From: Corallochytrium limacisporum Hawaii
Lineage: Eukaryota; Protista; Pluriformea
Length of the DNA stretch: 64,000 bases
Assembly: GCA_002811645.1 (NCBI GenBank)
Contig: PDIP01000006.1
Span: forward strand, 1-64,000
Direction of reading: 5' to 3'
The position numbers and the translations under genes are program-made. Positions 30,577 to 49,641 of the stretch are shown here, piece by piece; the first letter of the stretch is position 1, and each line of letters opens with the position of its first letter. Under the pieces are notes generated by a model that was not told the origin of the DNA, did not search any database, and saw only the letters and a program-made list of their open reading frames with translations.

Positions 30577-33537
30577 TCACTGAATGACACATTTGCCATC
30601 CTTTTCCTTTCCTTCCTTACCTTCCTTGCCGTTGGCCTCCAGTTCCTTCTCCATTCGATCCAGGATGGCCTCGAACGATGGCCGCTTCGTCCGATCATTA
30701 TCCCAACATGCCTCAATGAGAGCCGCGATGGCCTTGTCCTTGACGCGAGAGATAGGGGGACGGTAGCCCTGGTAGGCGGCTTTCCGAGCGATTTCGACAA
30801 TCTCTGGACCGTGGACCCCGCAGAAGGGCTCAATACCGGCAAAGATGTACCAAACGATCAGGGCAAATGAGTATACGTCCGTTTTTTCATCGACAACTTC
30901 TTTACGGAAGCACTCGGGGGACATGTAAATCAGCGAACCAACTCTTTGTGCTCTATGCATATCCTTGTATCCCGACAGACATCCCCGTCGCGCCTTACCA
31001 GTGTCTTTCTCCATAATGAACCCCAAGCCGAAATCTGCAATCTTGATGGTCTGAGCCTTGTCAAACAAAAGATTGGCAGGCTTCAGATCGCGGTGAATCA
31101 CCTGGGGGTTACACTGGTGCAGGAAATTCATACCCAGAAGAATATCCTTCATAAAGCGGAATGCCTGCCTTCTGGGGCAAAGCTTGGCATCGACTGACAA
31201 CTTTTCAAGATACTGGTCCAGAGTACCACCGGGCATGTACTCTTCAATCAAAAGTGGCGGATTCTTCGCAGAGCACGCTCCCAGGAACATCACCAGATTG
31301 GGATGACGCAGAGTGGACATCAACGCGATCTCATTGCGCAAAATGTGCACAAACGTGGCGTTCAGCTTGGCGTTCTCGTTGGCACGCAGTTTCTTGATGG
31401 CAACGTCCAAACCTCTCCATTTCCCTTTAAAAATTTCACCGGCTCCTCCGTAGTCGATCATCTCTCGGATGCTGAGTTGCATGGGATCAACTTCCCATCC
31501 TTCTGATACCCCACGTTCGTACAGATTGTCATTTTCCGCTTCCGCATTGATTGTGTGCGTTGATCCTTCTCCGTCATTTGAAAGGGTGGGATCTGAGAGA
31601 GTCAGACCGTCCGCAGACGGTGGATGGCTCACAAAAGGTGCTTCCTGGACATCCTCCTCGGCTCCATGCCCCATAAGATACTCTTTGACCGCGTTGTGCT
31701 GTCCACTTTGCGCATCGCGTAGTGGTGTACCACCCCAGCGATCCTTGGCATTGATGTCAGCTCCCGCTTCAACCAAAATCTTACAGCAGTCCATGTTGCC
31801 CTCCGCAGCGGCCAAGTGCAATGCCGTCCGACGATCGTAGTCCGGAGCACTGGGATCTACGCCAGCCCTCAGCAGTTCCCTCATCCTAATAGTATCGTTC
31901 TTCGTAGCTGCGATCAGAAGCAAAGCGGACGCATCCATGGAATCGGTTATCTGCCCAAATGACTCTCGCGGGGGGAGCTGGGCACCAACACTCAGAAGGT
32001 AGTCCACCACTGATTGGTGACCACTGCGGATTGCATCGGCAATGGGCGTACCTTTCCATCGATCCTCAGCATCGATGTGTGCACCACGCTCCACGAGCAG
32101 TTTGACGGCATCTAGGTGACCCTCCGAAGCGGCCAAATGAAGGGCAGTCCTGAAATCATAATCACCTCTGTTGACATCGGCTCCAAGGTCCAGTAACATT
32201 GACAAGCGCTTCACGGATCCAGCCGCGGAAGCGGCGCACAATTGCGATGCAAGATTGGAGTCAACATCGTTCTCTCCTTCCGCAGTCTCACGTAAATGTG
32301 GGGTGTCACCGGCCTCAAATGCTTCCTTGGCACCGCATTTAGCTAGGTATTCTGCAACATCAGCAAATCCTGATCTCTTGGCCTCGTTCAGGGGCATAGA
32401 GTTCCATCGGTCCACTGCATTCACATCTGCGCCCTGGCTAACCAAGAATTTTACAGCACCGAGGTTACCCTCCGCGGCCGCCCAATGCAGTGCAGTACGC
32501 CGATCAGAATCACGCACCATCACATCAACATCGTCCAACATTACTTGCATTTGTTCGACATCGTTGCGGACCACAGCTTGGAAATATGCTTCTATGCGCC
32601 CAGCTTGCACGTCAAGGCCCGGATCTGCAGTCTGTCTCATCAATGCACGATCTCGCATGGTGGTGCCTGGCAGCTTGTCAGAACCCTCGTCGTTGACTAC
32701 CGGGCCCGGAGCGGGCATGACATCTTCCAAGTACTTAACTACGGCCTCGTGACCACCTCTGCGAGCGTCATCCAATGGTGTGCCACCCCAGCGATCCTCA
32801 GCCCTCGGGTCCGCACCCTGGATGATGAGATACTTGATCACATTTTCATGTCCTTCAGATGCGGCCAAGTGCAGGGGCGTGCGCCGGTCATAATCATCAA
32901 AGTTGACTCCAATGCCCGCGGTCTCGATGTAGAAACGCAAAGTTTCAAGGTCGCCTTCGTAGGCGGCACGGCACATCTGCGCCGTCAAGTTGACTGGCTC
33001 TTGCTTTGAGGTCGATCTGGCAGACACGGACCGTAGTGAGAGTGAGCTCACTGACAAAGCGTCCTCTACCATTAGACCAGATTTCTTAGTGGAAGAATTC
33101 TGCCGCGACAGCTGCAAAGGCGCCTGGCTTACTACAATTTCCAGTCCCTGGGACTTGAACAAACCCACAATTTCTCCGCGGCGCAGCCGCAGGCAAATAT
33201 CTAGGGGGGACTCACCGTCATCGTTCAGGATGTGAGGGTCCGCACGATTATCGAGCAACAAACGTGCAACTTCCAGCCGACCCTTAAGAGAAGCAATATG
33301 GAGTGCTGTGTTTCCGCTGTAGTCTGACGCCATGACATCTGTACCCGCCTGCAAGAGCCTCGTAATCGCGTCGGTATCTCCCTCAACCACTGCATACAAA
33401 AGCTTCGATACTGCTTCTCGATCTTCGGCCGGTGAACTGAGAACCTTCGGGATCTTGGGTCTATCATCTCCGTTAGGTGTACCACTATTACTGCCATTTG
33501 AGACAGCAAGACCATTAGGTGCCATTTCCTCTGTCAT
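30577..33537 (-). CDS. Multi-ankyrin-repeat TKL/Raf-like Ser/Thr protein kinase with C-terminal CaaX
   Basis: Five ankyrin blocks, most of the DYDxRTxLHxAA...DRWxxTP type; kinase GGAGEIF, VAIKK, HRDLKPAN, DFG, YMSPE; ends KCVIQ*. Confidence 0.92.
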   Translation of the reverse strand: MTEEMAPNGLAVSNGSNSGTPNGDDRPKIPKVLSSPAEDREAVSKLLYAVVEGDTDAITRLLQAGTDVMASDYSGNTALHIASLKGRLEVARLLLDNRADPHILNDDGESPLDICLRLRRGEIVGLFKSQGLEIVVSQAPLQLSRQNSSTKKSGLMVEDALSVSSLSLRSVSARSTSKQEPVNLTAQMCRAAYEGDLETLRFYIETAGIGVNFDDYDRRTPLHLAASEGHENVIKYLIIQGADPRAEDRWGGTPLDDARRGGHEAVVKYLEDVMPAPGPVVNDEGSDKLPGTTMRDRALMRQTADPGLDVQAGRIEAYFQAVVRNDVEQMQVMLDDVDVMVRDSDRRTALHWAAAEGNLGAVKFLVSQGADVNAVDRWNSMPLNEAKRSGFADVAEYLAKCGAKEAFEAGDTPHLRETAEGENDVDSNLASQLCAASAAGSVKRLSMLLDLGADVNRGDYDFRTALHLAASEGHLDAVKLLVERGAHIDAEDRWKGTPIADAIRSGHQSVVDYLLSVGAQLPPRESFGQITDSMDASALLLIAATKNDTIRMRELLRAGVDPSAPDYDRRTALHLAAAEGNMDCCKILVEAGADINAKDRWGGTPLRDAQSGQHNAVKEYLMGHGAEEDVQEAPFVSHPPSADGLTLSDPTLSNDGEGSTHTINAEAENDNLYERGVSEGWEVDPMQLSIREMIDYGGAGEIFKGKWRGLDVAIKKLRANENAKLNATFVHILRNEIALMSTLRHPNLVMFLGACSAKNPPLLIEEYMPGGTLDQYLEKLSVDAKLCPRRQAFRFMKDILLGMNFLHQCNPQVIHRDLKPANLLFDKAQTIKIADFGLGFIMEKDTGKARRGCLSGYKDMHRAQRVGSLIYMSPECFRKEVVDEKTDVYSFALIVWYIFAGIEPFCGVHGPEIVEIARKAAYQGYRPPISRVKDKAIAALIEACWDNDRTKRPSFEAILDRMEKELEANGKEGKEGKEKDGKCVIQ

Positions 33538-36500: not shown

Positions 36501-37436
36501 GGTGGTCCGTATGAATAGTTAATGTATGGATCGAAATCTCCCCTCGGAGGTGGGGGGTGGGGGGTTGCGTGTTTCCATACAGCTACTTGCTTGCGAGTTG
36601 GCCTGGGATCGTCCATCGTTGGGGAGGGGGGGAACGCCAGCGATAGCCAATCAATGGCCGCAACACAATAGGCATTCTACAGAAGGATCACGGGATTTCT
36701 GTGGGTGTGTGATGCTTCCAATGGGTTCAAATCTGCACAGCACCATTTCCGCTGTACTTGCGCCACACGCAGCGGCCTTTGCCAGCAGTGCATCAGAACG
36801 GCTGGGGCAGGCTGAGAGACTTTGGACACCAGCGTGCGTACAACAAAATCCTCTGCCCAGTACATGTACGGGGGCGCACAACTATGGGTATTGTCCATTT
36901 ACGTATGCGCTCAGCACGACAAGACAGCAGGAGCACGGTGCAAAGAACTCATAAATATTTCTCGATAGCATCCCGACACACCCACATCACCGCAAAAAAG
37001 AGCCACCCCGGCTTCATGTAAGGGGGCGCATAGAGGCAAAAGGCAGAAAAAAAGAAAACTGTGTCCGTTGCCCGTGTCTCAGTCACCCGGGGCAGGCCTT
37101 TTGTTATCTTTTTGTTTTTGGTTTCGTGTGGCCTTTTGTTCCAGACCAGAGGCGAGTTAGGCAGCTGCGACGACAACGTGTGGGGGCGGGGGCGTGCCCT
37201 ACTACACACACATAGCCGTTGGGTTCGATTGCACATTTTCTGCTCTCGTCGGTTACGTGCAGGCGATGAAATGTGCGGGTGTGAGATACGGAGGCTGGAG
37301 GACGCAAACAATGGGAACACGCTGACAGGACAGTACAGTCCGCTGACCTATTTTTGGTGAGTGGTCTTACCATTAGCATGAAGCAATGACCAGTCACAAC
37401 GCCACATCGTTGGAAGGCTCGAACGGGTGCGCAAGA

Positions 37437-37475
37437 ACACATACACACACTCACTCACTCACTCACTCACATACA
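37437..37475. repeat. CA/CACT microsatellite just upstream of the MAPK start
   Basis: acacatacacacac(tcac)n atac. Confidence 0.7.
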
Positions 37476-37481
37476 TATAGA

Positions 37482-38600
37482 ATGTCTGCACCAAAGCCGC
37501 AACCTTCTCCCTACGAGGGATTCCACCGCTTCCAGATTGCCAGCGTCACCTTTGACGTGCCAAGCCGCTACACAGAACTGGAGCCCATTGGACGGGGTGC
37601 GTTCGGACAAGTGTGCTCGGCACTGGACACCATCACCAATGAACGGGTAGCCATCAAGAAGGTCCTGGAGCCCTTCAGAACGCATGTTCATGGCAAGCGG
37701 ACGTTCCGGGAACTGAAGCTTTTACGCAGCATCCACCATGAGAACATTATTAACCTGCGGGACCTCTTCACCACGCAGTCGACGCTGGAAAACTTTTCCG
37801 ACGTCTACATTGTTACAGACCTAATGGGTGCCGACTTGAATGAAATTATCAAGTACAACCAGCTGACCGAGGAGCAGGTGCAGTTCTTTGTCTACCAAGC
37901 CCTGCGTGGTCTCAAGTACATCCACTCTGCGGGTATTATTCATCGGGACCTTAAGCCGTCCAACATTGCGGTCAATGAAAATTGCGACCTCAAGATTCTG
38001 GACTTTGGCCTCGCTCGCATCTACGAGCCGGAAATGACCGGCTACGTCGCCACCCGGTGGTACCGTGCCCCGGAAATTATGTTGTCGTGGCGTCGATACA
38101 CAGAGGCTGCTGATGTGTGGGCCGTGGGTTGCATCATGGCGGAGTTGCTGCGTAGCGGCCCGCAATGCCGCCCCTTGTTTCCGGGCCGGGACCATGCTGA
38201 CCAGTTGCAGCGCATTGTAGAGATTCTGGGACGTCCTGGTGACGATGTGATCAACAAGATTCAATCGCAGAAGACGCGGGACTTTGTCAAGCGCATGCCG
38301 CACATGCCCGGACGGTCATGGAAGGAGCTCTTCCCCCAGGCTAGCCCCCTGGCCATTGACTTGCTGGACCGTCTGCTGACCTTCGATCCGAGCCACCGCA
38401 TCACGGCCACAGAGGCCCTGGGCCATCCGTACCTTGCCCAGTACCACGATGAGAACGACGAGCCCACCGCCCCGCCGTTCGACGACTCGTTCGAGAACAA
38501 GGAGGCAGATGCTGAAGAGTGGAAACGCCTCACTTTCACCGAAATCCAGTCCTTTATGCACGAGCATGCCAACGGGGGCGTCGATTCCATGGAGACGTAA
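37482..38600 (+). CDS. p38/Hog1-type stress-activated MAP kinase
   Basis: GRGAFG, HRDLKPSN, DFGLAR, activation loop EMTGYVATRWYRAPE (TGY), CD domain YHDENDEP. ATG 37482 preferred over 37386, which would translate the microsatellite. Confidence 0.95.
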   Translation: MSAPKPQPSPYEGFHRFQIASVTFDVPSRYTELEPIGRGAFGQVCSALDTITNERVAIKKVLEPFRTHVHGKRTFRELKLLRSIHHENIINLRDLFTTQSTLENFSDVYIVTDLMGADLNEIIKYNQLTEEQVQFFVYQALRGLKYIHSAGIIHRDLKPSNIAVNENCDLKILDFGLARIYEPEMTGYVATRWYRAPEIMLSWRRYTEAADVWAVGCIMAELLRSGPQCRPLFPGRDHADQLQRIVEILGRPGDDVINKIQSQKTRDFVKRMPHMPGRSWKELFPQASPLAIDLLDRLLTFDPSHRITATEALGHPYLAQYHDENDEPTAPPFDDSFENKEADAEEWKRLTFTEIQSFMHEHANGGVDSMET

Positions 38601-39462: not shown

Positions 39463-39840
39463 TTATGTCTTAAAAATGCCAGCATGCGCAGCAAATTTGG
39501 TGATCTGGGAACCTTCTCGGGGGTGGTGCAAGCGAGAGTCCCTCGGCAGCACTGGGGCAATCAAGGGGTTTGAGTGCCAGCCGTATTCGTGTGCCGTTGT
39601 TGCCGGATCGTCGTACTTCTCCACCGGAGGGGCCACCATTCGCTTTAGTGTCTCGTAGAATCCTGGATCCTCGACATCGTGGGCGGCCATTGAGTCTTGG
39701 GGCTTGGGTGGCAGGTAGTGAAGAGACTTGGGGGTTGGTTTGTAGGCGGTGAAAGGCCGGAAAAAGGCGTCTTCTTTCTCAATCGTTTCCCTCAGGATCC
39801 TCTCCTTCTTGACCTGATCAAGACCCTCCTCATTGGTCAT
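39463..39840 (-). CDS. CFAP144/FAM183-like cilia- and flagella-associated protein
   Basis: ILRETIEKE...PVEKYDDPATTAHEYGW...DSRLHHPREGSQITKF matches the FAM183 pattern; ATG at 39840. Confidence 0.7.
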   Translation of the reverse strand: MTNEEGLDQVKKERILRETIEKEDAFFRPFTAYKPTPKSLHYLPPKPQDSMAAHDVEDPGFYETLKRMVAPPVEKYDDPATTAHEYGWHSNPLIAPVLPRDSRLHHPREGSQITKFAAHAGIFKT

Positions 39841-40387
39841 GGCTATGCTTTGGATGATTTGTTCAAACTCCACGGTTTGCTGGGATCCAAGGTGCGGAAT
39901 CGAATGGCTCAATGATGGCATACGTACTCCAAAGTACCACCACCCGTCCCCACCCTCCTTGTTTCCAATCAAACCCGCCCGCCGAGAAGAGAGATTTTTT
40001 GGGTGCCTATAGCGCGAGTGTCGCCTGGCGGGACACGGGTTTACGTTGGTCACCGTCAAATCTTGCCAACCTTTCCCCCAATTCTTCCCTGCCCCCTTTC
40101 TTTGTCTCCTTTTTCCCCATGCCGTTGGGACAAACGTTTGCTACCCCCCTTGTGTGCACAGTCAAACGCGGACACGGGGAACCAACCTGCCTTGGCAACT
40201 TTGTGCGAAAAAGCCAGCTGGTTCAATGGGACCTTCCAGGAGCTTGCAGCACTAGCATAATCTTCCCACAACCATCCCAACCCCGCAACAGTTTTTACGT
40301 TGACAAGACCCCCCCCCTTCACTCGGGGAGAAAAAAAAAAGCCTCCCCCATTAGGGGCCTGCCTGTAGTGAAAATACCGAATTTGAG

Positions 40388-40582
40388 AAATCTGGGGGTC
40401 TCACTATGGACGGTCACAGATCAGAATCCTGTCAACCGATTTCGAAGATTCGAAAACATGGAACATGACAAGATATGATAATTTACACTTGTGTATGTTT
40501 AATTATCATGTTTATGATGCATGTCCAAAAAAATTGCAAAAAAAAAAGAAGCTTGGAAATTCCGAGCAGGGTGATTCGAACA
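40388..40582 (-). repeat. Direct repeat, left copy (195 bp): 22 nt of tRNA-Tyr 3' end (40561-40582) plus ~170 bp of downstream flank; att-like junction
   Basis: Matches 46880-47073 except for 3 substitutions, one ~20-bp diverged patch and A10 vs A8. Confidence 0.95.
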
Positions 40583-40789
40583 TTCTATACTGTGGCGTTG
40601 CTGGTGGTCTCTAAGTGCAATTTGAGGCACTGTTTGGTGGTAGTTCCTGCCTGTGACGTATATCGGGGCGGGTCTCTCGTTTCTTCCTGTTCTGTGAGTC
40701 CCTCTCCACTCCGACGGGGACTGCGTTGAAAAGGAAGAAAAAAAAGAAGAGTGGTTACGATACGGTGGATTGAGACTCTTCAAGGTCAT

Positions 40790-43700
40790 CTACTGTTTCT
40801 TAGGTTTTACGGTATGCCAATGCGTAGAGTGGACTTTCGTGGCCCTACACCCCCTTCTCACCCCCCTCCCCGGGGCCCCTATTGGTAGTCTTTGCCCAAC
40901 GCGCCGGCCGCTTAGCCTCTTGCGTTGGGCGCCTCGTGTGGCTGCACCTTCAGCGGGTTGTGAGCATTGCATCGGTGCGGGGGGAAGGGCGAGCTGGTGA
41001 GATCCCGTGTACGGACCGAGAGGTTTGGCCATTGTTGGCGCCTGGGCCCGGCCCATCTTATGCCTCGCTATTCCCATGAGGTTCGTCCACTTGTCATCCA
41101 CATCACTGTCCACAATTTGAGGACAGCGAAGTTTGCCACGTAGATGGGTATAGCACTCGGCGAAGCACGCTTCCATTACAAAGTTGGCCAGGTGGGATTG
41201 CCTGCGCGGATCCTGCAAGAGGTATCGGTCCAGCATGACAGCTACAGTATGACCCATACACTGTGCCAATTGCTCCAAATAGGCCCTCTTGTTGCCACTT
41301 CCCGTGGTGTCGATGAGTCCGACCGCATAGGTCACGGCTAGGTGCCGCACCTTATGGCTGGTCATCTTACATTCACCACCAGAGAGCTCCTCCACGCAGT
41401 GCTGGAACGCAATGGCAACCGATTGATTGCATACCCGACAGTGCTCACGGGACTTGACTGGATCAGCGCGGGCAGGGCAACGTGAGCACTGCAAAGGAAA
41501 GAGGGGCAATTTGAGCCTGAGCCTGTCGTTCCGCGCCAAAAAGAAACACCGTTCCCTTATGCGCCTCTGCAGCTCGGGCACAGACCGCAAAGATCCCTGC
41601 GTGGACTTCGGGTTCGGGCCGTGGAGGGCCAACGCCTCAGGAAAGACCGAATCCGGAGCGGCCACCGGCAACACAATGCGAATGTACCAAGCAACTATTT
41701 TGGCCAGTTCCTTGTAGAGCCATGTGCGATCAATGTACTTGCGTTTGAAACAGCTTGTCTTGATCCTGGCGGGCCAATAGATATGACCACCTATCAAAGG
41801 ACGCATCGCTTGCTCCGCTGCTGTGGCTCGCTCAAAGGATCCGACTAGGGCGGCACGCAGGATGCTCTGCCGCGGGAACCCCGTCCCCATGACCTGAGTA
41901 AGGACATGTTCTTGGATCCTGCGGCTGAGACTGATGAGCTGCTGCACAGGCGATGGTGGTGGCACATACTGTACATTCTCGTCACGCACACAATTGGCAT
42001 CGCTACCAAAAGACAGAAGGTGATGCAGGAGCGTGCGGTTATCGTCATCGAGCAAGCGACCCATGCCATCAGGGTGATTGTTGATGCTCTTAAAGAAGGG
42101 CATGAGGAAATGGTGAAGTGACTTGTTTAAGTACTCATCGAGCCCTTTGAATCCGTCCCTGGGGATCTTGCCGGTCGCAAGGGCGCGCTCATGAGAAGAG
42201 CAGTACGTGTCTACCAACTTCCTCTGATTGTCCAGATTTCTGAGGGCAAGCTGCAAATCGCTGATACTTTTGTTCCACTGGGCCTGGATACCAGACGCCT
42301 TCATTATTTGTGCAACTGCAGCGTGGCGGTTTAGTGCGGTGCTGCCATGGTGGCTTCCACTGCTGCGACCATGGTTAGCAGGTGCTTTCATGAGGCGCAC
42401 AATGTCTCTCAGTGCCTTGCTGACGTTGAGAACACTGCGCACACTGCCTGCCAAAGTACGCGGCATCTTGTAGAGCTTGCGGAGGAAGGAGTCACCCTGG
42501 GCGTAAGAGACAACAATGCGGCGATAGTATCGGCGAAATTGAATGTGTTTATCCTTGTGCGCTTGCTTGAACGTATCAAATGCCCGCGACAGCGACTGCT
42601 TCAATTTCAATTCAATCCACTGGGTAACCATACCATTATCGTAGAATGGCCGCAATAGCTGCCTTGGGTCACGCAAGAGTGTATCAGTCATCGACGGTAT
42701 GTAATCATGGACCCGGTGACAGTAGAGGAGATAGCCACGCACATCTGCAAGATGCGCTGAGGTCGTCTTACGGGGTTCGCTACAGGCAAATGCCAGCAGT
42801 ACCTGTCGAGGTTGGGATGCCTTCTCGGTGTCTCGCTTTTGCTTGCGCTGCCACCACTCATGCCAGCCATTGCGTCGCAGAGCCACGGTGACAATGGTAC
42901 CGATTCCATGCCATAGTGTCTCCACCCACTGTTGGAGCCAGGCAACGTGACCTCCCTGGGCCGTTGTGGTGCCGTCGATTAGCGACTCTGGTTCTACAAT
43001 CATGTCAAAGTCTGTGTTTGGCAGTCTGAAGACCAGCGAAATCGGAACTAAGACACGCGCCACAGCCGAGATACCGTCCACTAATGTCTTGTCCATGTCT
43101 TCATCTTTGTCCGTTCTGTTGTTTTCTTCAGATGCGTCTTCTCCATCGGCGAGTACGGATTCGTCGCCATAGTCAGCGTCCAAGATCTCCTCTTGCTCTT
43201 GTGCCTCATCCTTAGCCTCGGGCTGCGGGTGGTACGCCATCAGCTCAGAATGTAAGTCAATCGAGGGTAACGGACACCGTCCGGTAGAGGTTCCCTTGGG
43301 AAGCATGCAAGCATCAACCTGCTCCTGGTGCTCGATCTCAAGCAGTGCTTGGTCTAAGCGTTCCACATCTTGTTCAAACCCTGGGTCGCTTCGCAGACTC
43401 TTGATGCGCCCGCGGCGATTAATCTCGCCGACGGCGGCGCCAACGTCCACTGCCGGTGTCTTTTCGTAGGATAAGTCAGCAGTGCGATCGTTCATTTGAA
43501 TGGAATGGTAGTAAGCCCGGTGCAGCTCGTAGTTGTGCTGAAGCAGGCCAGACTGTTTGACACTACGAGACTGGAGCTTGCGAGCACACTTGGAGCCCAT
43601 GTGAATTGGTAGCATTTGTCCATCTCGCACGGGCGGCGCCACGTCCCGAGATGCCCAATATTGGTGCCATGCTGCCCAATTGACCACCCGAAAGAGACCA

Positions 43701-46393
43701 TCCAAGTCCTTGGTGGTCATTGGTTGCCCTTCTTCGGTCAGGAACAAGTTCTCAGCTCCTTTGAACCCCTTGTCCTGTCCCAATAGGGCCGGATGTACAT
43801 ATTTGCAGTAGACACGAAGCACACGCGACACAACTGGAGGAATGGGAATCTCGGTGGCATGTCCGGCCAAACAGTTCTTGTGCTCAAGGGGCATGTCCAC
43901 AAAGCTGACCATTTCGCGATCCAACGTTGAGTCCCCGGAGTGCACCAGGTGACTCAGATATCCGTACACCATCTTGGTGCAGTCACCATCAGTCCCGGCG
44001 GGAACAGCAGCCAACCTGAACGCGGCTTCCTGTTCGTAGCCGCAGCCAAACTCACCACTGGCCCTTGTGAGACCACACAGCACGGAGGGGCGCTGGTTGG
44101 GTACTAAATAGTTTAGAAGCATGACGAGAAGCATTACCATCTGTACGCGCACAATACCGTTCTCCCTAACGTATCTACAAATATGAGACTGTCGGTTCGT
44201 TCCGTCGTTAGCGCTGACCAGATCAAGGAAGTCCCGAACAGCTGGCTCGATGAGGTCAGTGAGTCCTGTCATCATGGCGAGGACGTCAGTCTGCCGCGGC
44301 ACACGACCCTTCTCCTCATCGTGCCGGCTGGTGCGTGCAGTGTTCTCGACCTCAATATTTGGATACAGATCATTCTCTTTGGTGAGGTTCTTCAGGAGAT
44401 CCAGGACTCTTTGCGACCCTTCCAGGACGTGCTGGCATCGGGCTGCAGTGGGCATGAGTTCATGAATGTTGGCCGCGCGCAGCGCCTCCACCAATTTTCT
44501 CATTCTTGTAATTTTGTTCCTCCTAGCCCCAGCACATACCGTCCAGTGCCACTTGCGTGTTTCACGGTCATCATCAAAGTCGTCAGTGCCGTCATCGGCA
44601 TTGTCCGCGGATGCCCCCCTCTTCTGAACCACAACTCGGCGGAAATACTCCGCATGCCATTCCGGCTCTGCCATAATGATCTCAAACAGAAAGGTCCAGT
44701 CGCTGTTGAGGTCCTCTATCCTACAAACCAGATGAGCAGGAGGTACAGAGTCCTGCTCGAGTAGTGAGTCCACCTCTGGATCATCAACGGGCCGGGTGGC
44801 AAGATCCAGGAAGAAGGTCCAAAATTGCCGGCCCATGCCCAGGATGGCTTCAAAGAAGGAGCTCCGGCGCGTTCCATCGTTGGCGGGTATCCACTTGGAC
44901 AACATGGAGGATACGAGAGTAGTACCATCAAAGTTCTTGTTTAACCAGGCCTCCATGCGTTGTAGGTCCCCTGGTCGTTCACAAATGTGGTACAAGAAGG
45001 CGTGTAATTCGGTCTTGGTCGGAGTGCATCTTTGCTTGCCACCAACTCGCTCCTGGTTATGTACACACTTCATGGTTTTGGTCTGCGAGTCATTGAAATG
45101 TTTGATCACGCTCACAGCCACCACCCCATGGAGTAGAAGCTCCACAGTGAAATTGGAAGATCGCCCAGGTTCCAACCGATCATTTCCAATTTGATTGCGA
45201 GCAGTAGCCCTTTGCTCTGCCCGACATGAGAAATACAGAGAGTACCAAATTTGTGGATCTGGAAGCATCGCTACACTTGCCTGTAGGAATGCTTTTCGCA
45301 CCCCCAACACTCGAAGTGCATCAGGGGGGAGTTCCACTGCAGGCCCTTTGTGGTTGGGATTGTAGTTTATCTTGTGGGGGCCACTGTTCTCTTTGCAATC
45401 CTGTTTCTTTCTCCCGGCTCCTGGCTGTTGCCGACGCCATTTGCTTCGACATTGAACATCGCCCGTCCTACCATGGTAGGTTGGAAATGGCAGCTCATAC
45501 AAACCATTGCCAAAGGATCGATTCGAGCCCACATTTGCAGTCTCAACTGCCATCTTCTTTATTGTACGCACCATCGGATCACAGACCGGCAGGAGGATGG
45601 AGTCGGGCTGTCGATCCCGGTCTCCGTCCAGTGGCAATAGACTCCCGCCGTAGTGTTTCTCCTCATGTGTCATCAAGATATTGGAAGAAGCAAACGTATC
45701 CGCAGTTTGATCACCCAGGAAGTCTAGCCATCCAGGGTGGTGTTCGGCCTCGGTACCATCGATTCCGCTGTACCACCCGTCAAAAGATAGAATGCTGGCA
45801 ACCACGGAACGTTCGAGGATCAGACGTAATTGTCCCGCTGTCATCGGGACCGGCATCGTCATGATGATACGAATTGTAATCAGTTGTGCTGTCGTGGAGG
45901 GGGATCGAACGTGCCACTGATAGGCATACTCTGCATCGCTTGCATCAAGTATTGCTTGCAGAAGGCTTGCAAACTCGGCGCGGTCGCCAGAAGGTTTAAT
46001 GTTTGGGACAAACTCAGTGGTCCAAAACTGGGTACGCAGGGACGACAAACATTGCCGTGGTCCTGGTTGGTGCAGAAAATTGTGGTCAGACATGCCATTC
46101 TCATCATCACAACCATGCAAGGTGATAAATGCTTTTGGCCCTACCGGGACATGGCGGTTGGTTCGGACTTCGGTCGGACAGTAGTGTCTGATGCGCTCGC
46201 TGGTAGTTGCAAAGCCATTGGCTCCGCACCATATGCAACTCCTTGTTCCAGTGAACCACACTGGTTGGAAATTGTCGTCAATCGGGACCAATTTTTTGGG
46301 GGATCTACTCCTGATCTTGCGGGGCTTCTTCGGTACCTGTTCATCGCCAGTGAATCCGAAAGTGCACACGGCTTGTTCACTGGCATTGCTCAT
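40790..46393 (-). CDS. ~1867-aa protein with two tyrosine-recombinase-like domains and Zn-binding motifs
   Basis: C-terminal domain: FPRQSIL (R), IKT (K), SHKVRH (HxxR), MGHT (H), DRY (Y). Central domain: NQRPSVL, HKN, LFLTEEG, SKCARK, QMN, LSY. First ATG at 46393 (the track start 46441 is GTG). Confidence 0.85.
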   Translation of the reverse strand: MSNASEQAVCTFGFTGDEQVPKKPRKIRSRSPKKLVPIDDNFQPVWFTGTRSCIWCGANGFATTSERIRHYCPTEVRTNRHVPVGPKAFITLHGCDDENGMSDHNFLHQPGPRQCLSSLRTQFWTTEFVPNIKPSGDRAEFASLLQAILDASDAEYAYQWHVRSPSTTAQLITIRIIMTMPVPMTAGQLRLILERSVVASILSFDGWYSGIDGTEAEHHPGWLDFLGDQTADTFASSNILMTHEEKHYGGSLLPLDGDRDRQPDSILLPVCDPMVRTIKKMAVETANVGSNRSFGNGLYELPFPTYHGRTGDVQCRSKWRRQQPGAGRKKQDCKENSGPHKINYNPNHKGPAVELPPDALRVLGVRKAFLQASVAMLPDPQIWYSLYFSCRAEQRATARNQIGNDRLEPGRSSNFTVELLLHGVVAVSVIKHFNDSQTKTMKCVHNQERVGGKQRCTPTKTELHAFLYHICERPGDLQRMEAWLNKNFDGTTLVSSMLSKWIPANDGTRRSSFFEAILGMGRQFWTFFLDLATRPVDDPEVDSLLEQDSVPPAHLVCRIEDLNSDWTFLFEIIMAEPEWHAEYFRRVVVQKRGASADNADDGTDDFDDDRETRKWHWTVCAGARRNKITRMRKLVEALRAANIHELMPTAARCQHVLEGSQRVLDLLKNLTKENDLYPNIEVENTARTSRHDEEKGRVPRQTDVLAMMTGLTDLIEPAVRDFLDLVSANDGTNRQSHICRYVRENGIVRVQMVMLLVMLLNYLVPNQRPSVLCGLTRASGEFGCGYEQEAAFRLAAVPAGTDGDCTKMVYGYLSHLVHSGDSTLDREMVSFVDMPLEHKNCLAGHATEIPIPPVVSRVLRVYCKYVHPALLGQDKGFKGAENLFLTEEGQPMTTKDLDGLFRVVNWAAWHQYWASRDVAPPVRDGQMLPIHMGSKCARKLQSRSVKQSGLLQHNYELHRAYYHSIQMNDRTADLSYEKTPAVDVGAAVGEINRRGRIKSLRSDPGFEQDVERLDQALLEIEHQEQVDACMLPKGTSTGRCPLPSIDLHSELMAYHPQPEAKDEAQEQEEILDADYGDESVLADGEDASEENNRTDKDEDMDKTLVDGISAVARVLVPISLVFRLPNTDFDMIVEPESLIDGTTTAQGGHVAWLQQWVETLWHGIGTIVTVALRRNGWHEWWQRKQKRDTEKASQPRQVLLAFACSEPRKTTSAHLADVRGYLLYCHRVHDYIPSMTDTLLRDPRQLLRPFYDNGMVTQWIELKLKQSLSRAFDTFKQAHKDKHIQFRRYYRRIVVSYAQGDSFLRKLYKMPRTLAGSVRSVLNVSKALRDIVRLMKAPANHGRSSGSHHGSTALNRHAAVAQIMKASGIQAQWNKSISDLQLALRNLDNQRKLVDTYCSSHERALATGKIPRDGFKGLDEYLNKSLHHFLMPFFKSINNHPDGMGRLLDDDNRTLLHHLLSFGSDANCVRDENVQYVPPPSPVQQLISLSRRIQEHVLTQVMGTGFPRQSILRAALVGSFERATAAEQAMRPLIGGHIYWPARIKTSCFKRKYIDRTWLYKELAKIVAWYIRIVLPVAAPDSVFPEALALHGPNPKSTQGSLRSVPELQRRIRERCFFLARNDRLRLKLPLFPLQCSRCPARADPVKSREHCRVCNQSVAIAFQHCVEELSGGECKMTSHKVRHLAVTYAVGLIDTTGSGNKRAYLEQLAQCMGHTVAVMLDRYLLQDPRRQSHLANFVMEACFAECYTHLRGKLRCPQIVDSDVDDKWTNLMGIARHKMGRAQAPTMAKPLGPYTGSHQLALPPAPMQCSQPAEGAATRGAQRKRLSGRRVGQRLPIGAPGRGVRRGCRATKVHSTHWHTVKPKKQ

Positions 46394-46879
46394 GTTTACA
46401 TGTGTTACTTTTCTATAACGCGCAAAAATGGAGATAGCCACGAACTACAGTATGCGACACACTATCGAACCTGATGTAGGTTGCAGTGCCCCAGGCATAT
46501 GGTCTTCGCGCGGTGAGATCAGGTGAAAGACTTGATGGCATCTGTGAGACCCACCCACCCTCAAACCACCCTGCCCTTGGGGTAATTTGAAACTTTCCCG
46601 GCACGGCTACGGCCAATTCCAGGTGAATTTTTCCTCCAATCCATAGGGGCGATCTTGTGTACTGAAGAGTCTCATAGAAAATCGCAATGGGAAATATATA
46701 CGGGGAAGCACTGGATCACGATTCACTATTAGACACTGAAAAGGCCTGGCGCGGCTTAAGGTGTACATATAAATGAGACTCCCGTCATCACCGGGGGCTG
46801 GCGGAAAAAAAAGAGAGAGTCTCCCTTATGCACTCCCCTCTCGCTCCTTCAGCTGATAGTAAAAGTACTACAAAACAGT

Positions 46880-47073
46880 AAATCTGGGGGTCTCACTATG
46901 GACGGTCACAGATCAGTATCCTGTGAACCGATTTCGAAGATTCGAAAACATGGAACATGGCAAGAACTTATTTTATACACCTGTGTTATGTTTAATTATC
47001 ATGTTTATGATGCATGTCCAAAAAAATTGCAAAAAAAAGAAGCTTGGAAATTCCGAGCAGGGTGATTCGAACA
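46880..47073 (-). repeat. Direct repeat, right copy (194 bp), supplying the 3' end and terminator of the intact tRNA-Tyr
   Basis: Near-identical to 40388-40582. Confidence 0.95.
47020..47038 (-). terminator. RNA polymerase III terminator (T8 then T7 tracts) downstream of tRNA-Tyr
   Basis: + strand aaaaaaattgcaaaaaaaa gives oligo-T on the tRNA strand ~13 nt after the discriminator; also present in the left repeat. Confidence 0.85.
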
Positions 47074-47170
47074 CCCGACCTAGAGATCACTATTCGGTAT
47101 GTTTAGTACCGGATTTCAGATGAATTTGCGCATCTACAGTCTCCCGCTCTACCAACTGAGCTATGCTCGG
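47052..47170 (-). tRNA. tRNA-Tyr(GUA) with a 46-nt canonical-position intron (47088-47133)
   Basis: Reverse complement folds as CCGAGCA/TGCTCGG acceptor, GCTC/GAGC D arm, GGAGA-CT-GTA-G^A-TCTCT anticodon arm and GGGTG-TTCGAAT-CACCC T arm; 73 nt after splicing; no encoded CCA. Confidence 0.97.
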
Positions 47171-47861
47171 TGAGTGCTTCTGATGGGCGAGGGTGGAAAA
47201 AAAGTATATAAACTACTGAGCAATGCACGTGTTTGAGTTAGGTTTTCAGTGAAAGTCTGGTGGCGGTGGGGTGATGGATGTGGGCAATTCGGTGGACGGG
47301 AAATGTCTACGTTTGAAGGGGGGCGGCAGGGGGGAGACTCCTCCATCGAGGAGCGAGGCGTGCTCGGTTGATATAACCCCACACACCACAAAAAGAGGAA
47401 AGTTTCTTCTTCCTTCCTTTTCTCTTGTTTCCTTTTCTTTCTTTCGTTTCTTTCCTTTGTCGTCCAGCTGGCGGCGCCTCTCGTCCCTCGAGAACCATGG
47501 CTCGGCCCTCCTGTTCTTCTATTTCCTCGAATACGCCAAGAGTGTGTACACACCCATGGAGGCATTGTTAGCATTTCCTTTTTTTTTTTTTTAACTGTTC
47601 TTCCCTCTCCCGATTCTTATTGTTGGCTCCGGCGGGGCTATTGCCAATACGAAAAAGGGACAGGGCCCGAGGGGAGGAGGAGGAGGGGGGCTTGCCGTGT
47701 TTTCCAGCCGTGGACTGTTTGTGTCCCGTAACGGGCAGGTAGTTGAGGGAAAAATTAGAAGGTTATGATATTGAAATTGAAATGCCCAAAGACCATGCAA
47801 CGACAGACACATACCCAAGAAAGAAAAAGAGAGCAACAAAGCCAATCTTAAACTCAAGAGG

Positions 47862-48719
47862 ATGTCGTCAAATCCACCACCTGGCTATGGCCAGCCGCCG
47901 CAGGGGTACGGACAGCCACCGCAGGGATATGGCCAGCCACCACAGGGATACGGACAGCCACCGCAGGGGCACGGACAGCCGCCGCAGGGGTACGGACAAC
48001 CACCGCAGGGGTACGGACAACCACCGCAGGGATATGGACAGCCGCCCCAGGGATATGGACAGCCGCCCCAGGGATATGGCCAGCCGCCGGCGCCGGGCCA
48101 AGACTACGGATCCATGCTTCCTTCAGAGTATAGAAACAATGGTCAGGGCGCGGAGCAGAGGCCCAGTGCGGGCACCGTTCCAGACAACTACGCACAAACG
48201 GCCCAGGCAGCATATGGTGGTCAACAGCCGCCATCAGAGCCGCTGCCATCGTCTCAGCAAGAACCACCTTCCTCAAAGAAGCAGCAAATGATGAACGAGC
48301 AACAACAAAACTATGCTCCGCCGCCCATGCCGCCACCGGGACAGGCACCGGGAGCGTATCCGTACCCACCAGCGGCCAACCCTGTTCCGGAAGGAACGGA
48401 TTTCAATGCCCGCGAAGTAAAAGACTTCCCCAACGAGTTCGACGACGAGTCCAAGGGCAAGGGTGCCTTCAAGAATTTCATTGGCCTAAACACTGCGCGT
48501 TGCGCAGTGTGCCAGCAAAAGAATCGAGTGCGCGATGGCCAGGCGCGAATCTACAGCTGCGGTCGCTGCGGGGAACTGTCCCTGGCGGAAGGGGTCAAGG
48601 GGCCCAAAGATCCAACCAAAAAATTTTTCCGCTGTGGCTGCAATGCACTGCTCATCATGGACAAAAACTCCATGATTTTCATGTGTCCACGTGAACGTGC
48701 AATTCGTGGCTGTGGCTAA
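47862..48719 (+). CDS. Pro/Gln/Gly/Tyr-repeat protein with TMEM55 (PIP4P)-like Cys-rich Zn domain
   Basis: About ten PPQGYGQ repeats; C-terminal CAVC...CGRC...[13 protein letters not shown]...CPR resembles the TMEM55 KKYVRCPCNCLLIC...CPR region. Confidence 0.7.
47876..48089 (+). repeat. Coding 21-bp tandem repeat (PPQGYGQ)
   Basis: About ten units of ccRccNcagggRtaYggMcaR, mostly with synonymous variation. Confidence 0.9.
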
Positions 48720-48831: not shown

Positions 48832-49641
48832 TCAGACATCCTCTTCTGTTGCAGCTCCACCCGCACCAATAATAAGGTAAGGTTTCGCCTGCCGTGCCGC
48901 CTCAGCTTCGTGGGCCAAGTTTGTGCGGCGCACAGCTTCGTCGGTCGCAGCTTCGCGTGTACGTTCCTCGGCCAGGCGCCGCCGAATTTGCCGCTCTACC
49001 TTGGCCTTTCCGGGCTTGGCCTTGTGCCACTTTTGGCCCTGGATTTTGTAGGCTTCCTTAGCAGTCAACTTCTTGCCGGTCCTGTCACGATACTCAAGGG
49101 TAACCTGTGGGGTGTAGTCTAGTTTGAGCAGCTTCACCGTTTTGCTCTTCCTACCGTGGCTCGCAGTTGGGGCCTGCCCCGGGACATTCTCGTGCCTTGC
49201 TTCCGGCGCTGCGGCGCCACTGGAGGCAGGGCCCAGAATGTCATGCGTAACTAAACTGCTCAAACTCAGTGGGTGGTGATATGCAGGCACATTGCCCTTA
49301 CTTGCTGTCTCTTGCTCCTGGTCAACATGTGCGTCGTCCACACCGTCCCCGTCAACAGCATGCTCACTGTCGCCCTGTCTATCTTCCCCACGTCCGACCA
49401 AGTCAAGGAACGTCGACAGTGCATTAATGGTTAAGCCATCAGTTCGGGGGCCACTGGGTTCGGGCCTCGTGTGTTCGCGAGTCGACGGCGGCACAAGGTC
49501 GCTCTTGCCGTCGTGGACTGAGATTCTCGCCTCTGCCACCACTGTCGGTGCGACGGATGCCAGCACCACGTCGTCACCATCATCTTCTTCTCGCACGGTC
49601 CTTGTGCCCCTGTTTATCTTTCGTCGTTTTTTGAATGCCAT
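48832..49641 (-). CDS. Short SART1/Snu66-like U4/U6.U5 tri-snRNP protein (C-terminal domain only)
   Basis: DYTPQVTLEYRDRTGKKLTAKEAYK...WH...PGKAKVER...KPYLII matches the conserved SART1 C-terminus. Confidence 0.75.
   Translation of the reverse strand: MAFKKRRKINRGTRTVREEDDGDDVVLASVAPTVVAEARISVHDGKSDLVPPSTREHTRPEPSGPRTDGLTINALSTFLDLVGRGEDRQGDSEHAVDGDGVDDAHVDQEQETASKGNVPAYHHPLSLSSLVTHDILGPASSGAAAPEARHENVPGQAPTASHGRKSKTVKLLKLDYTPQVTLEYRDRTGKKLTAKEAYKIQGQKWHKAKPGKAKVERQIRRRLAEERTREAATDEAVRRTNLAHEAEAARQAKPYLIIGAGGAATEEDV

Follow-up and report, generated by a model that had tools for sequence, protein, structure and literature searches.

Can a eukaryotic chromosome carry an element that enters a tRNA gene and restores it in doing so, as prophages and genomic islands do in prokaryotes? 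This question is raised by a locus of the protist Corallochytrium limacisporum Hawaii (GenBank assembly GCA_002811645.1), found at positions 40,388 to 47,170 of the window analysed here, i.e. the 64,000 nucleotides (nt) made up of positions 1 to 64,000 of contig PDIP01000006.1. There, an intact tRNA-Tyr gene and a displaced copy of its 3' end bracket one giant open reading frame (ORF). The favoured reading, to which we assign a probability of roughly 0.5, is an integrated, single-copy, one-gene and site-specific element at tRNA-Tyr, whose giant orphan ORF probably encodes a tyrosine-type recombinase. The tRNA, the repeat with its boundary in the T-arm, the single intact ORF, the presence of one copy per genome and the eukaryotic setting are all seen directly, and mobility is unproven.

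The tRNA-Tyr gene and its direct repeat

Read on the minus strand, the locus consists of an intact tRNA-Tyr, its flank, the giant ORF and, at the far end, the last 22 nt of the tRNA followed by the same flank. This order had been noticed in a sequence-only reading of the stretch and was confirmed by Rfam, ARAGORN and the repeat searches. The tRNA is the single one of the window (Rfam RF00005, 47052-47170, minus strand, 56.9 bits, E 1.2e-9). At default settings ARAGORN overlooked it (0 genes called); with introns allowed, it returned tRNA-Tyr(gta) c[47052,47170], of 73 nt plus a 46-nt intron at 37/38, which is the intron position of eukaryotic nuclear tRNA genes.

The two copies of the direct repeat (40388-40582 vs. 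46880-47073) are 93.4% identical over 196 columns (repeat finder and BLASTN, E 2.5e-79). The 195-nt repeat is made of the last 22 nt of the tRNA, including the discriminator base, and of 172-173 nt of downstream flank. On the minus strand it opens at TGTTCGAATCACCC, which runs from the end of the T-stem through the T-loop to the 3' end of the tRNA, and identity begins 2 nt before the T-loop, within the T-arm. According to bioRxiv 10.1101/2020.11.02.365908, the T-loop is among the standard crossover sublocations of bacterial tRNA-targeting integrases. At the T-loop, the start-to-start spacing of the two copies is 6491 nt (repeat family D5); with one ORF in between, this agrees with the single-gene element and the 6491-bp circle of the sequence-only reading.

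The 13 differing columns out of 196 are unevenly distributed: some reflect the length of a T-run, others are clustered within about 35 nt, and two changes stand alone. If the T-run length is disregarded, both copies are identical over 88 nt including and beside the tRNA end, and the flank continues through the T-run, which has eight T in the copy beside the tRNA (T8) and ten in the far one (T10). Each flank copy also carries TTCGAAGATTCGAA, i.e. two extra copies of the T-loop hexamer TTCGAA, about 125 nt from the core. Six of the 18 TTCGAA of the window are located within the two 195-nt copies. The extra hexamers may be accessory binding sites of a recombinase.

The features of the locus, all on the minus strand, are the following (att, attachment site; aa, amino acids; Pol III, RNA polymerase III):

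47052..47170, minus: intact tRNA-Tyr(GUA) with a 46-nt intron at 37/38 (Rfam, ARAGORN)
47073-47052, minus: tRNA-side repeat copy, last 22 nt of the tRNA, predicted attL core
46880..47051, minus: tRNA-side flank copy, 172 nt, predicted to stem from the element (repeat families D2, D3 and D5, alignment)
47031-47038, minus: T8 run in the tRNA-side flank, Pol III terminator-like, 13 nt past the tRNA
46933-46946, minus: TTCGAAGATTCGAA pair in the tRNA-side flank (TTCGAA scan)
46394..46879, minus: 486-nt non-coding stretch from the flank copy to the first ATG of the ORF, with an inferred candidate role as promoter
40790..46393, minus: one intact ORF, 1867 aa from ATG plus stop, a sequence orphan
40583..40789, minus: 207-nt non-coding end of the insert, from the stop codon to the displaced tRNA fragment, predicted P-arm side of attP (sequence)
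40561..40582, minus: displaced last 22 nt of tRNA-Tyr, predicted attR core
40388..40560, minus: far copy of the flank, 173 nt, by prediction the host's own flank from before the insertion or else left over from an older element (repeat finder, alignment, TTCGAA scan)
40538-40547, minus: T10 run in the far flank copy
40441-40454, minus: TTCGAAGATTCGAA pair in the far flank copy
39463..40059, minus: FAM183/CFAP144-like host gene, outside the element and downstream of the insert (PF14886, E 2.3e-19)

The insert between the 195-nt copies measures about 6.3 kb. Its ORF reads away from the tRNA, and no other ORF of at least 100 aa was found on the coding strand within the insert. The displaced 22-nt fragment (40561..40582) is without the 5' part of the gene and is not called as a tRNA. 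Companion genes had not been visible to the sequence-only reading either, and the Pfam search (0 families) revealed no reverse transcriptase, capsid, packaging or DDE domain.

As for the genomic setting, the FAM183/CFAP144-like gene directly adjoins the far repeat copy, downstream of it. The other neighbours include a protein kinase (37386-38600), an ankyrin-repeat kinase (30577-33537), a Sel1-repeat protein and the C-terminal part of SART-1 (48832-49641). These are ordinary eukaryotic genes, which shows directly that the setting is eukaryotic. At 47832-48125, within an ORF of 285 aa on the plus strand (47862-48719) that belongs to no Pfam family, a 21-nt unit is repeated in tandem about 10-14 times and encodes a 7-residue peptide repeat.

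The giant ORF and its recombinase-like signature

The ORF (46441..40790, minus strand) encodes 1883 aa when read from a GTG and 1867 aa from the first ATG at 46393; its residues are numbered here from the GTG. Two of its regions are of concern:

41222..41884, minus: C-terminal tyrosine-recombinase-like signature, residues 1520-1740 (motifs, shuffles, comparison with lambda Int)
43466..44098, minus: candidate second, non-canonical recombinase-like region, residues 782-992 (Atlas, hhalign, hidden Markov model)

The C-terminal signature comprises TGFPR1524, IK1561T, H1696-K-V-R1699-H and G-H1731 x8 Y1740, so that R, K, H-x-x-R, H and Y are all present at 1520-1740 in the canonical order and spacing. 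A zinc-ribbon-like insert, CSRC...CRVC, is located within it at residues 1652-1671. Lambda Int has H308-E-L-R311...G-H333 x8 Y342, with the same H-to-Y spacing of 9 as in the ORF. A composite pattern, TG.{1,2}R..K[TGS]..H..R[HST]..GH.{8}Y, is matched by residues 1520-1740 of the ORF and also by lambda Int, E. coli XerD and 83 of 120 lambda-family proteins. None of 20,000 shuffles of the ORF contained it, and its last two boxes alone occurred in 18 of 20,000, figures that overstate the significance since the pattern was composed after the ORF had been inspected, a point to be counted with those held against the favoured reading below.

Profile comparisons gave weak signals in the same region. 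With hhalign, the best local match to a 19-member lambda-Int alignment was the GH..Y box, at a sub-threshold E of 0.13, and residues ~1693-1740 were aligned with positions 125-163 of the 183 of the integrase profile phrog_34557 of PHROG (E 0.099, 13.3 bits). Scored with a hidden Markov model (HMM) of the lambda family, the C-terminal region was beaten by 176 of 3000 shuffles, compared with 1468 and 3000 of 3000 for two control regions. In the protein Atlas, every nearest cluster with a Pfam family has PF00589 (17% of members) or ResT/TelK; such clusters account for 15 of the 30 matches, with a top score of 0.96. Taken with the genomic context, on which this judgement partly depends, the C-terminal part is likely to be a tyrosine-recombinase catalytic domain. 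The ORF had already been called a recombinase from the sequence alone. Of this claim, the catalytic-residue pattern and the weak sub-threshold signals stood, significant homology and a confident fold did not, and the call is consequently made at the motif level only.

A lead, and no more than that, concerns residues ~780-990, where a second recombinase-like region may be present with R784, K855, K951-x-x-R954, H979 and Y992. In the Atlas it falls with clusters of PF00589 (29%) and ResT/TelK, hhalign gave an E of 0.18 on its 'LF..G.p.t' stretch, and 166 of 3000 shuffles scored as well with the lambda HMM. The Smith-Waterman comparison with XerD did not support it (379 of 500 shuffles as good), and BLASTP of residues 650-1050 vs. 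1400-1883 showed no mutual similarity (best E 0.58).

Concerning its relatives, the ORF has one database match, the EukProt entry Clim_evm15s221 (1918 aa), which corresponds to it from Met17 to about residue 1809 and also carries PF14886. The annotated gene thus fuses the ORF of the insert with the FAM183 gene (window 39463-46393, minus strand), and is probably a mis-joined annotation or, failing that, a read-through transcript. The word-indexed search of 5.8 billion protein clusters returned the ORF itself only, phmmer with residues 882-1883 against 1.84 billion representatives found its own entry only, and residues 1490-1760 gave no match at E<=10 among shorter proteins. No relative was present among the seven pattern matches in viral_contigs, in which an exact 30-nt piece of the flank repeat had no match either. 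One locus stood out among the 102 pattern matches in metagenome_contigs; it was rejected as a low-complexity chance match, the genuine ORF being on the opposite strand. Also rejected was the one tblastn match among 50,697 phage records (E 0.09), which lies over small hypothetical ORFs and not over an integrase. This lack of homologues would suggest that the insert does not belong to the conserved gene set.

At the N-terminus, residues 69-88 form a C-x2-C...H-x-C arrangement (CIWC at 69, HYC at 86; 46231-46240 and 46183-46185), which may be a putative DNA-binding zinc finger. No family match was obtained for this zinc-finger-like region (69-88).

Copy number, junctions and competing explanations

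Of five public runs found, four were compared, all of them as k-mer contigs. X1 and X2 are DNA from one sample, possibly the source of the assembly; for X3 and X4, an RNA origin is a guess. In X1, contig depth is 172 for the insert and 165 and 155 for its flanks; in X2, it is 622-624 for the insert and 650 and 682 for the flanks. The repeat is represented by a 194-nt contig, with a depth of 247 (X1) and 1145 (X2), i.e. about 1.4-1.8 times the unique depth, and neither run has a contig for the interior of the far copy (40418-40552). The single 194-nt contig was read as two copies collapsed by the contig builder, which favours neither an integrated nor an excised form, and the depths as a whole as evidence of a single insert, two copies of the repeat and no more family members in each genome. 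A tRNA-derived short interspersed element was rejected on this count, as depth gives only about two copies of the repeat. A long terminal repeat (LTR) retroelement was also discarded, since its 'LTR' would have to supply precisely the missing part of a tRNA and a reverse transcriptase is lacking, and so was a long target duplication of the long interspersed element type, given that neither a 3' poly(A) nor a reverse transcriptase or endonuclease is present.

The contigs prove all four junctions. They stop 30 nt inside the repeat boundaries (ends at 40417 and 46909, starts at 40553 and 47044), and the integrated form looks the same in them as an empty site plus a circle. It is on this ground that an assembly mis-join has to be considered, in which a real empty site and a free 6.5-kb circle, or a mixture of the forms, would have been threaded through the shared 195 nt; that X1 and X2 are one sample, possibly the very source of the assembly, also speaks for it. 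Such a mis-join is nevertheless very improbable, since insert and flanks are equally deep in X1 and X2, a result seldom to be expected of a free multicopy episome, and the 13 differing columns out of 196 would let an assembler with read pairs phase the two copies. If true, it would itself support a mobile circle.

As for the runs guessed to be RNA, X3 has contigs within the insert at 42775-43005 and 46165-46398 (depth 3-4.5), and X4 has none inside it. One further X3 contig (46887-47500, depth 11, 0 mismatches) spans the tRNA-side flank and the tRNA with its intron and extends upstream by more than 330 nt, which suggests, given the guessed nature of the run, a longer transcript running through the tRNA locus. 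Over the few hundred bases covered by X4, three substitutions and one 1-nt insertion were seen relative to the window (47255, 47435, 47451, 40143), and X4 may be a diverged strain.

Several results weigh against an integrated, site-specific element. At the protein level, Pfam returned 0 families at E<=1 for the whole ORF and, for its segments, unrelated sub-threshold matches only (PI3Ka, E 0.069; FYVE, E 0.39). NCBIfam and the PDB sequence searches had no match to the ORF, and significant similarity to PF00589 or any other recombinase profile was not found. The Smith-Waterman comparison with the catalytic part of XerD remained at noise level (103 of 500 shuffles as good), and the two single-sequence AlphaFold2 models, run without an alignment because the ORF has no relatives, were unusable (predicted local distance difference test, pLDDT, of 36.9 and 36.7). 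At the DNA level, the codon usage of the ORF is host-like, with a GC content at third codon positions (GC3) of 0.59 and a relative synonymous codon usage (RSCU) correlation of 0.64 (19 other ORFs range from 0.15 to 0.74). With its 173 nt beyond the tRNA, the repeat is longer than a plain att core needs to be, and BLASTN found no other copy within the window. Being single copy by depth, the insert has no family and no second insertion to be compared with. Finally, joints of a circle or of an empty site numbered 0 in all four runs, in contigs that are unable to show them and from which rare forms are dropped.

Part of these results would be expected of a non-mobile locus, namely a lineage-specific orphan host gene lying between tRNA-Tyr and a local partial duplicate, for instance a tandem tRNA duplication minus its 5' part. 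The single-copy insert with a depth equal to that of its flanks in X1 and X2, the host-like codon usage (neither GC nor codon anomaly was seen in the ORF), the clustered differences between the repeat copies, which fit old duplicates, the RNA-like X3 contigs on small parts of the ORF (depth 3-4.5) and the lack of excision signs among k-mer contigs that could not show them all agree with it. This explanation requires three coincidences, however: a truncation in the T-arm, a direct orientation bracketing one gene, and a recombinase pattern in that very gene. In addition, the ORF has no homologue in other eukaryotes and is not a conserved host gene. On balance, a non-mobile origin is unlikely.

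The length of the shared stretch (195 nt, of which 88 nt perfect), extending far beyond the tRNA, bears on another explanation, in which a circle carrying a 195-nt piece of the locus was integrated by homologous recombination of the host, in the manner of Campbell, the ORF being cargo or a replication or maintenance protein. One crossover between circle and chromosome yields exactly repeat, insert and repeat, and significant recombinase homology was not found (Pfam, NCBIfam, Smith-Waterman with XerD). Under this explanation, the boundary 2 nt before the T-loop, a classic crossover site of integrases, would be a coincidence, and the ORF has the full R..K..HxxR..H..Y pattern in order; it is regarded as quite improbable, even more so than the non-mobile locus.

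A proposed integrated element and known systems

For the favoured reading of an integrated one-gene element, the following course of events may be proposed. On a 6,491-bp circle, the integrase gene would be preceded by an attP whose core, mimicking tRNA-Tyr from the T-arm to the 3' end, is followed by about 173 nt of arm DNA. The circle would enter through site-specific recombination within the 7-nt T-loop of tRNA-Tyr on the chromosome, whereby the 5' three-quarters of the tRNA would be joined to the element's copy of the 3' end, terminator and flank, and the original 3' end and flank of the host would be displaced by 6.5 kb to become the far copy. The tRNA-side copy (22 nt, terminator and flank) would thus have arrived with the element, as a result of which the tRNA and its terminator would have stayed whole. 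The ORF would be the integrase, with R1524, K1561, H1696, R1699, H1731 and Y1740 as predicted catalytic residues, and the reverse reaction would release the 6,491-bp circle and leave an empty site made of the tRNA, the flank and FAM183. The extra 173 nt of shared flank would be arm-like attP DNA, for which two origins can be envisaged: an imprecise excision in a lineage with a flank about 7% different, as in specialised transduction, or the former presence, in a tandem array, of an older related element from which the far copy would remain.

The closest parallel is offered by the prokaryotic tRNA-targeting prophages and islands. As in these, the insertion lies in the 3' part of a tRNA, an identity block from the T-arm to the 3' end rebuilds the gene, the displaced 3' fragment is found at the far end, and a large gene stands beside the tRNA-side att site and reads away from it. 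By contrast, the host is here a eukaryote, the tRNA has an intron, the neighbours are kinase, ankyrin-kinase, SART-1 and FAM183 genes, there is no cargo, and the identity block extends 173 nt past the tRNA. The protein is also about five times longer than lambda Int (1867 vs. 356 aa), without significant PF00589 similarity. By analogy, the element would work like a prokaryotic tRNA-targeting prophage or island without being a detectable member of that integrase family. The phage- or island-type insertion put forward in the sequence-only reading therefore holds in part: the anatomy matches the T-loop class, whereas the 173-nt flank repeat was not predicted by a simple attP model.

Among eukaryotic elements, Cryptons also combine a recombinase with the absence of reverse transcriptase and terminal inverted repeats, and a circle route has been proposed for them (PMC3212892). 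According to the same paper, they have terminal direct repeats of 4-6 bp, are multicopy and encode recognisable recombinases, often with GCR1_C or DUF3504, unlike the 195-nt repeat, single copy, tRNA specificity and protein without detectable homology described here. Starships have a tyrosine-recombinase captain at one end and some of them target a Pol III gene, 5S rDNA; according to PMC9156397 and PMC11162782, they are giant, cargo-bearing elements of Pezizomycotina, with DUF3435 captains and 2-6-bp direct repeats, and their insertions into 5S rDNA lie inside the gene and probably disrupt it. At the present locus the tRNA gene that serves as target is restored, one gene only is present, without cargo or DUF3435 match, and the host is a protist. 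Dada elements are eukaryotic DNA elements at tRNA and snRNA genes, with a tRNA-Tyr family among them, which possess a DDE transposase of about 530-670 aa, create 6-7-bp target duplications and are multicopy (PMC8869645); DDE domain, short target duplication and multiple copies are not seen at the present locus.

DIRS/Ngaro elements, recombinase-bearing polinton-like viruses, virophages and phaeoviruses share eukaryotic tyrosine-recombinase integration with it. The first have reverse transcriptase and RNase H and the viruses have capsid and packaging genes, none of which is detectable in the single ORF. No tRNA gene was present within 1 kb of the insertion sites of the polinton-like viruses studied in PMC12220804, and phaeoviruses use CC or CG integration sites (PMC12993054). 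As had been surmised beforehand, the known eukaryotic tyrosine-recombinase families do not fit, and no match ties the ORF to the Crypton, Starship or DIRS-linked ones. The literature search, with most subscription journals outside its reach, returned no description of a eukaryotic nuclear tyrosine-recombinase element that integrates in a tRNA gene and restores it.

These comparisons also bear on the idea that the insert is a member of a described family that has diverged too far to be recognised, whether a Crypton, another recombinase transposon or a Dada-like DDE transposon targeting tRNA genes. Its one-gene, recombinase-only layout without terminal inverted repeats is indeed Crypton-like (PMC3212892), and Dada does insert in tRNA genes, tRNA-Tyr included (PMC8869645). 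Yet Crypton repeats are of 4-6 bp and the word 'tRNA' occurs 0 times in PMC3212892, the DDE transposase and 6-7-bp target duplications of Dada (PMC8869645) set it apart, and the ORF is single copy, without a Pfam match and without a homologue among the 1.84 billion representatives. Such a membership would come as a considerable surprise.

At its most specific, the integrated element would be the first nuclear eukaryotic one of the prophage type: a one-gene episome using the T-loop of tRNA-Tyr, with a giant integrase of an orphan class, perhaps containing a fused pair of XerC/XerD-like modules (~780-990 and 1520-1740), and rebuilding the gene, its terminator and its flank. This full version is put forward tentatively and is doubtful as it stands. 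In more general terms, the odds are about even that the locus would represent a new eukaryotic variant of the prokaryotic integration strategy.

It is a hallmark of mobile DNA in prokaryotes to integrate site-specifically into tRNA genes and to repair them in the process, and the present host is one that we take to be a close unicellular relative of animals. Should the locus prove immobile, it would illustrate how att sites can be mimicked by a local duplication. An active element would bring in a recombinase class that is invisible to current profile libraries and could offer a compact tool, made of one protein and one site of about 200 bp, for scarless integration at a conserved eukaryotic locus; the prokaryotic strategy would then also exist in a eukaryotic nucleus.

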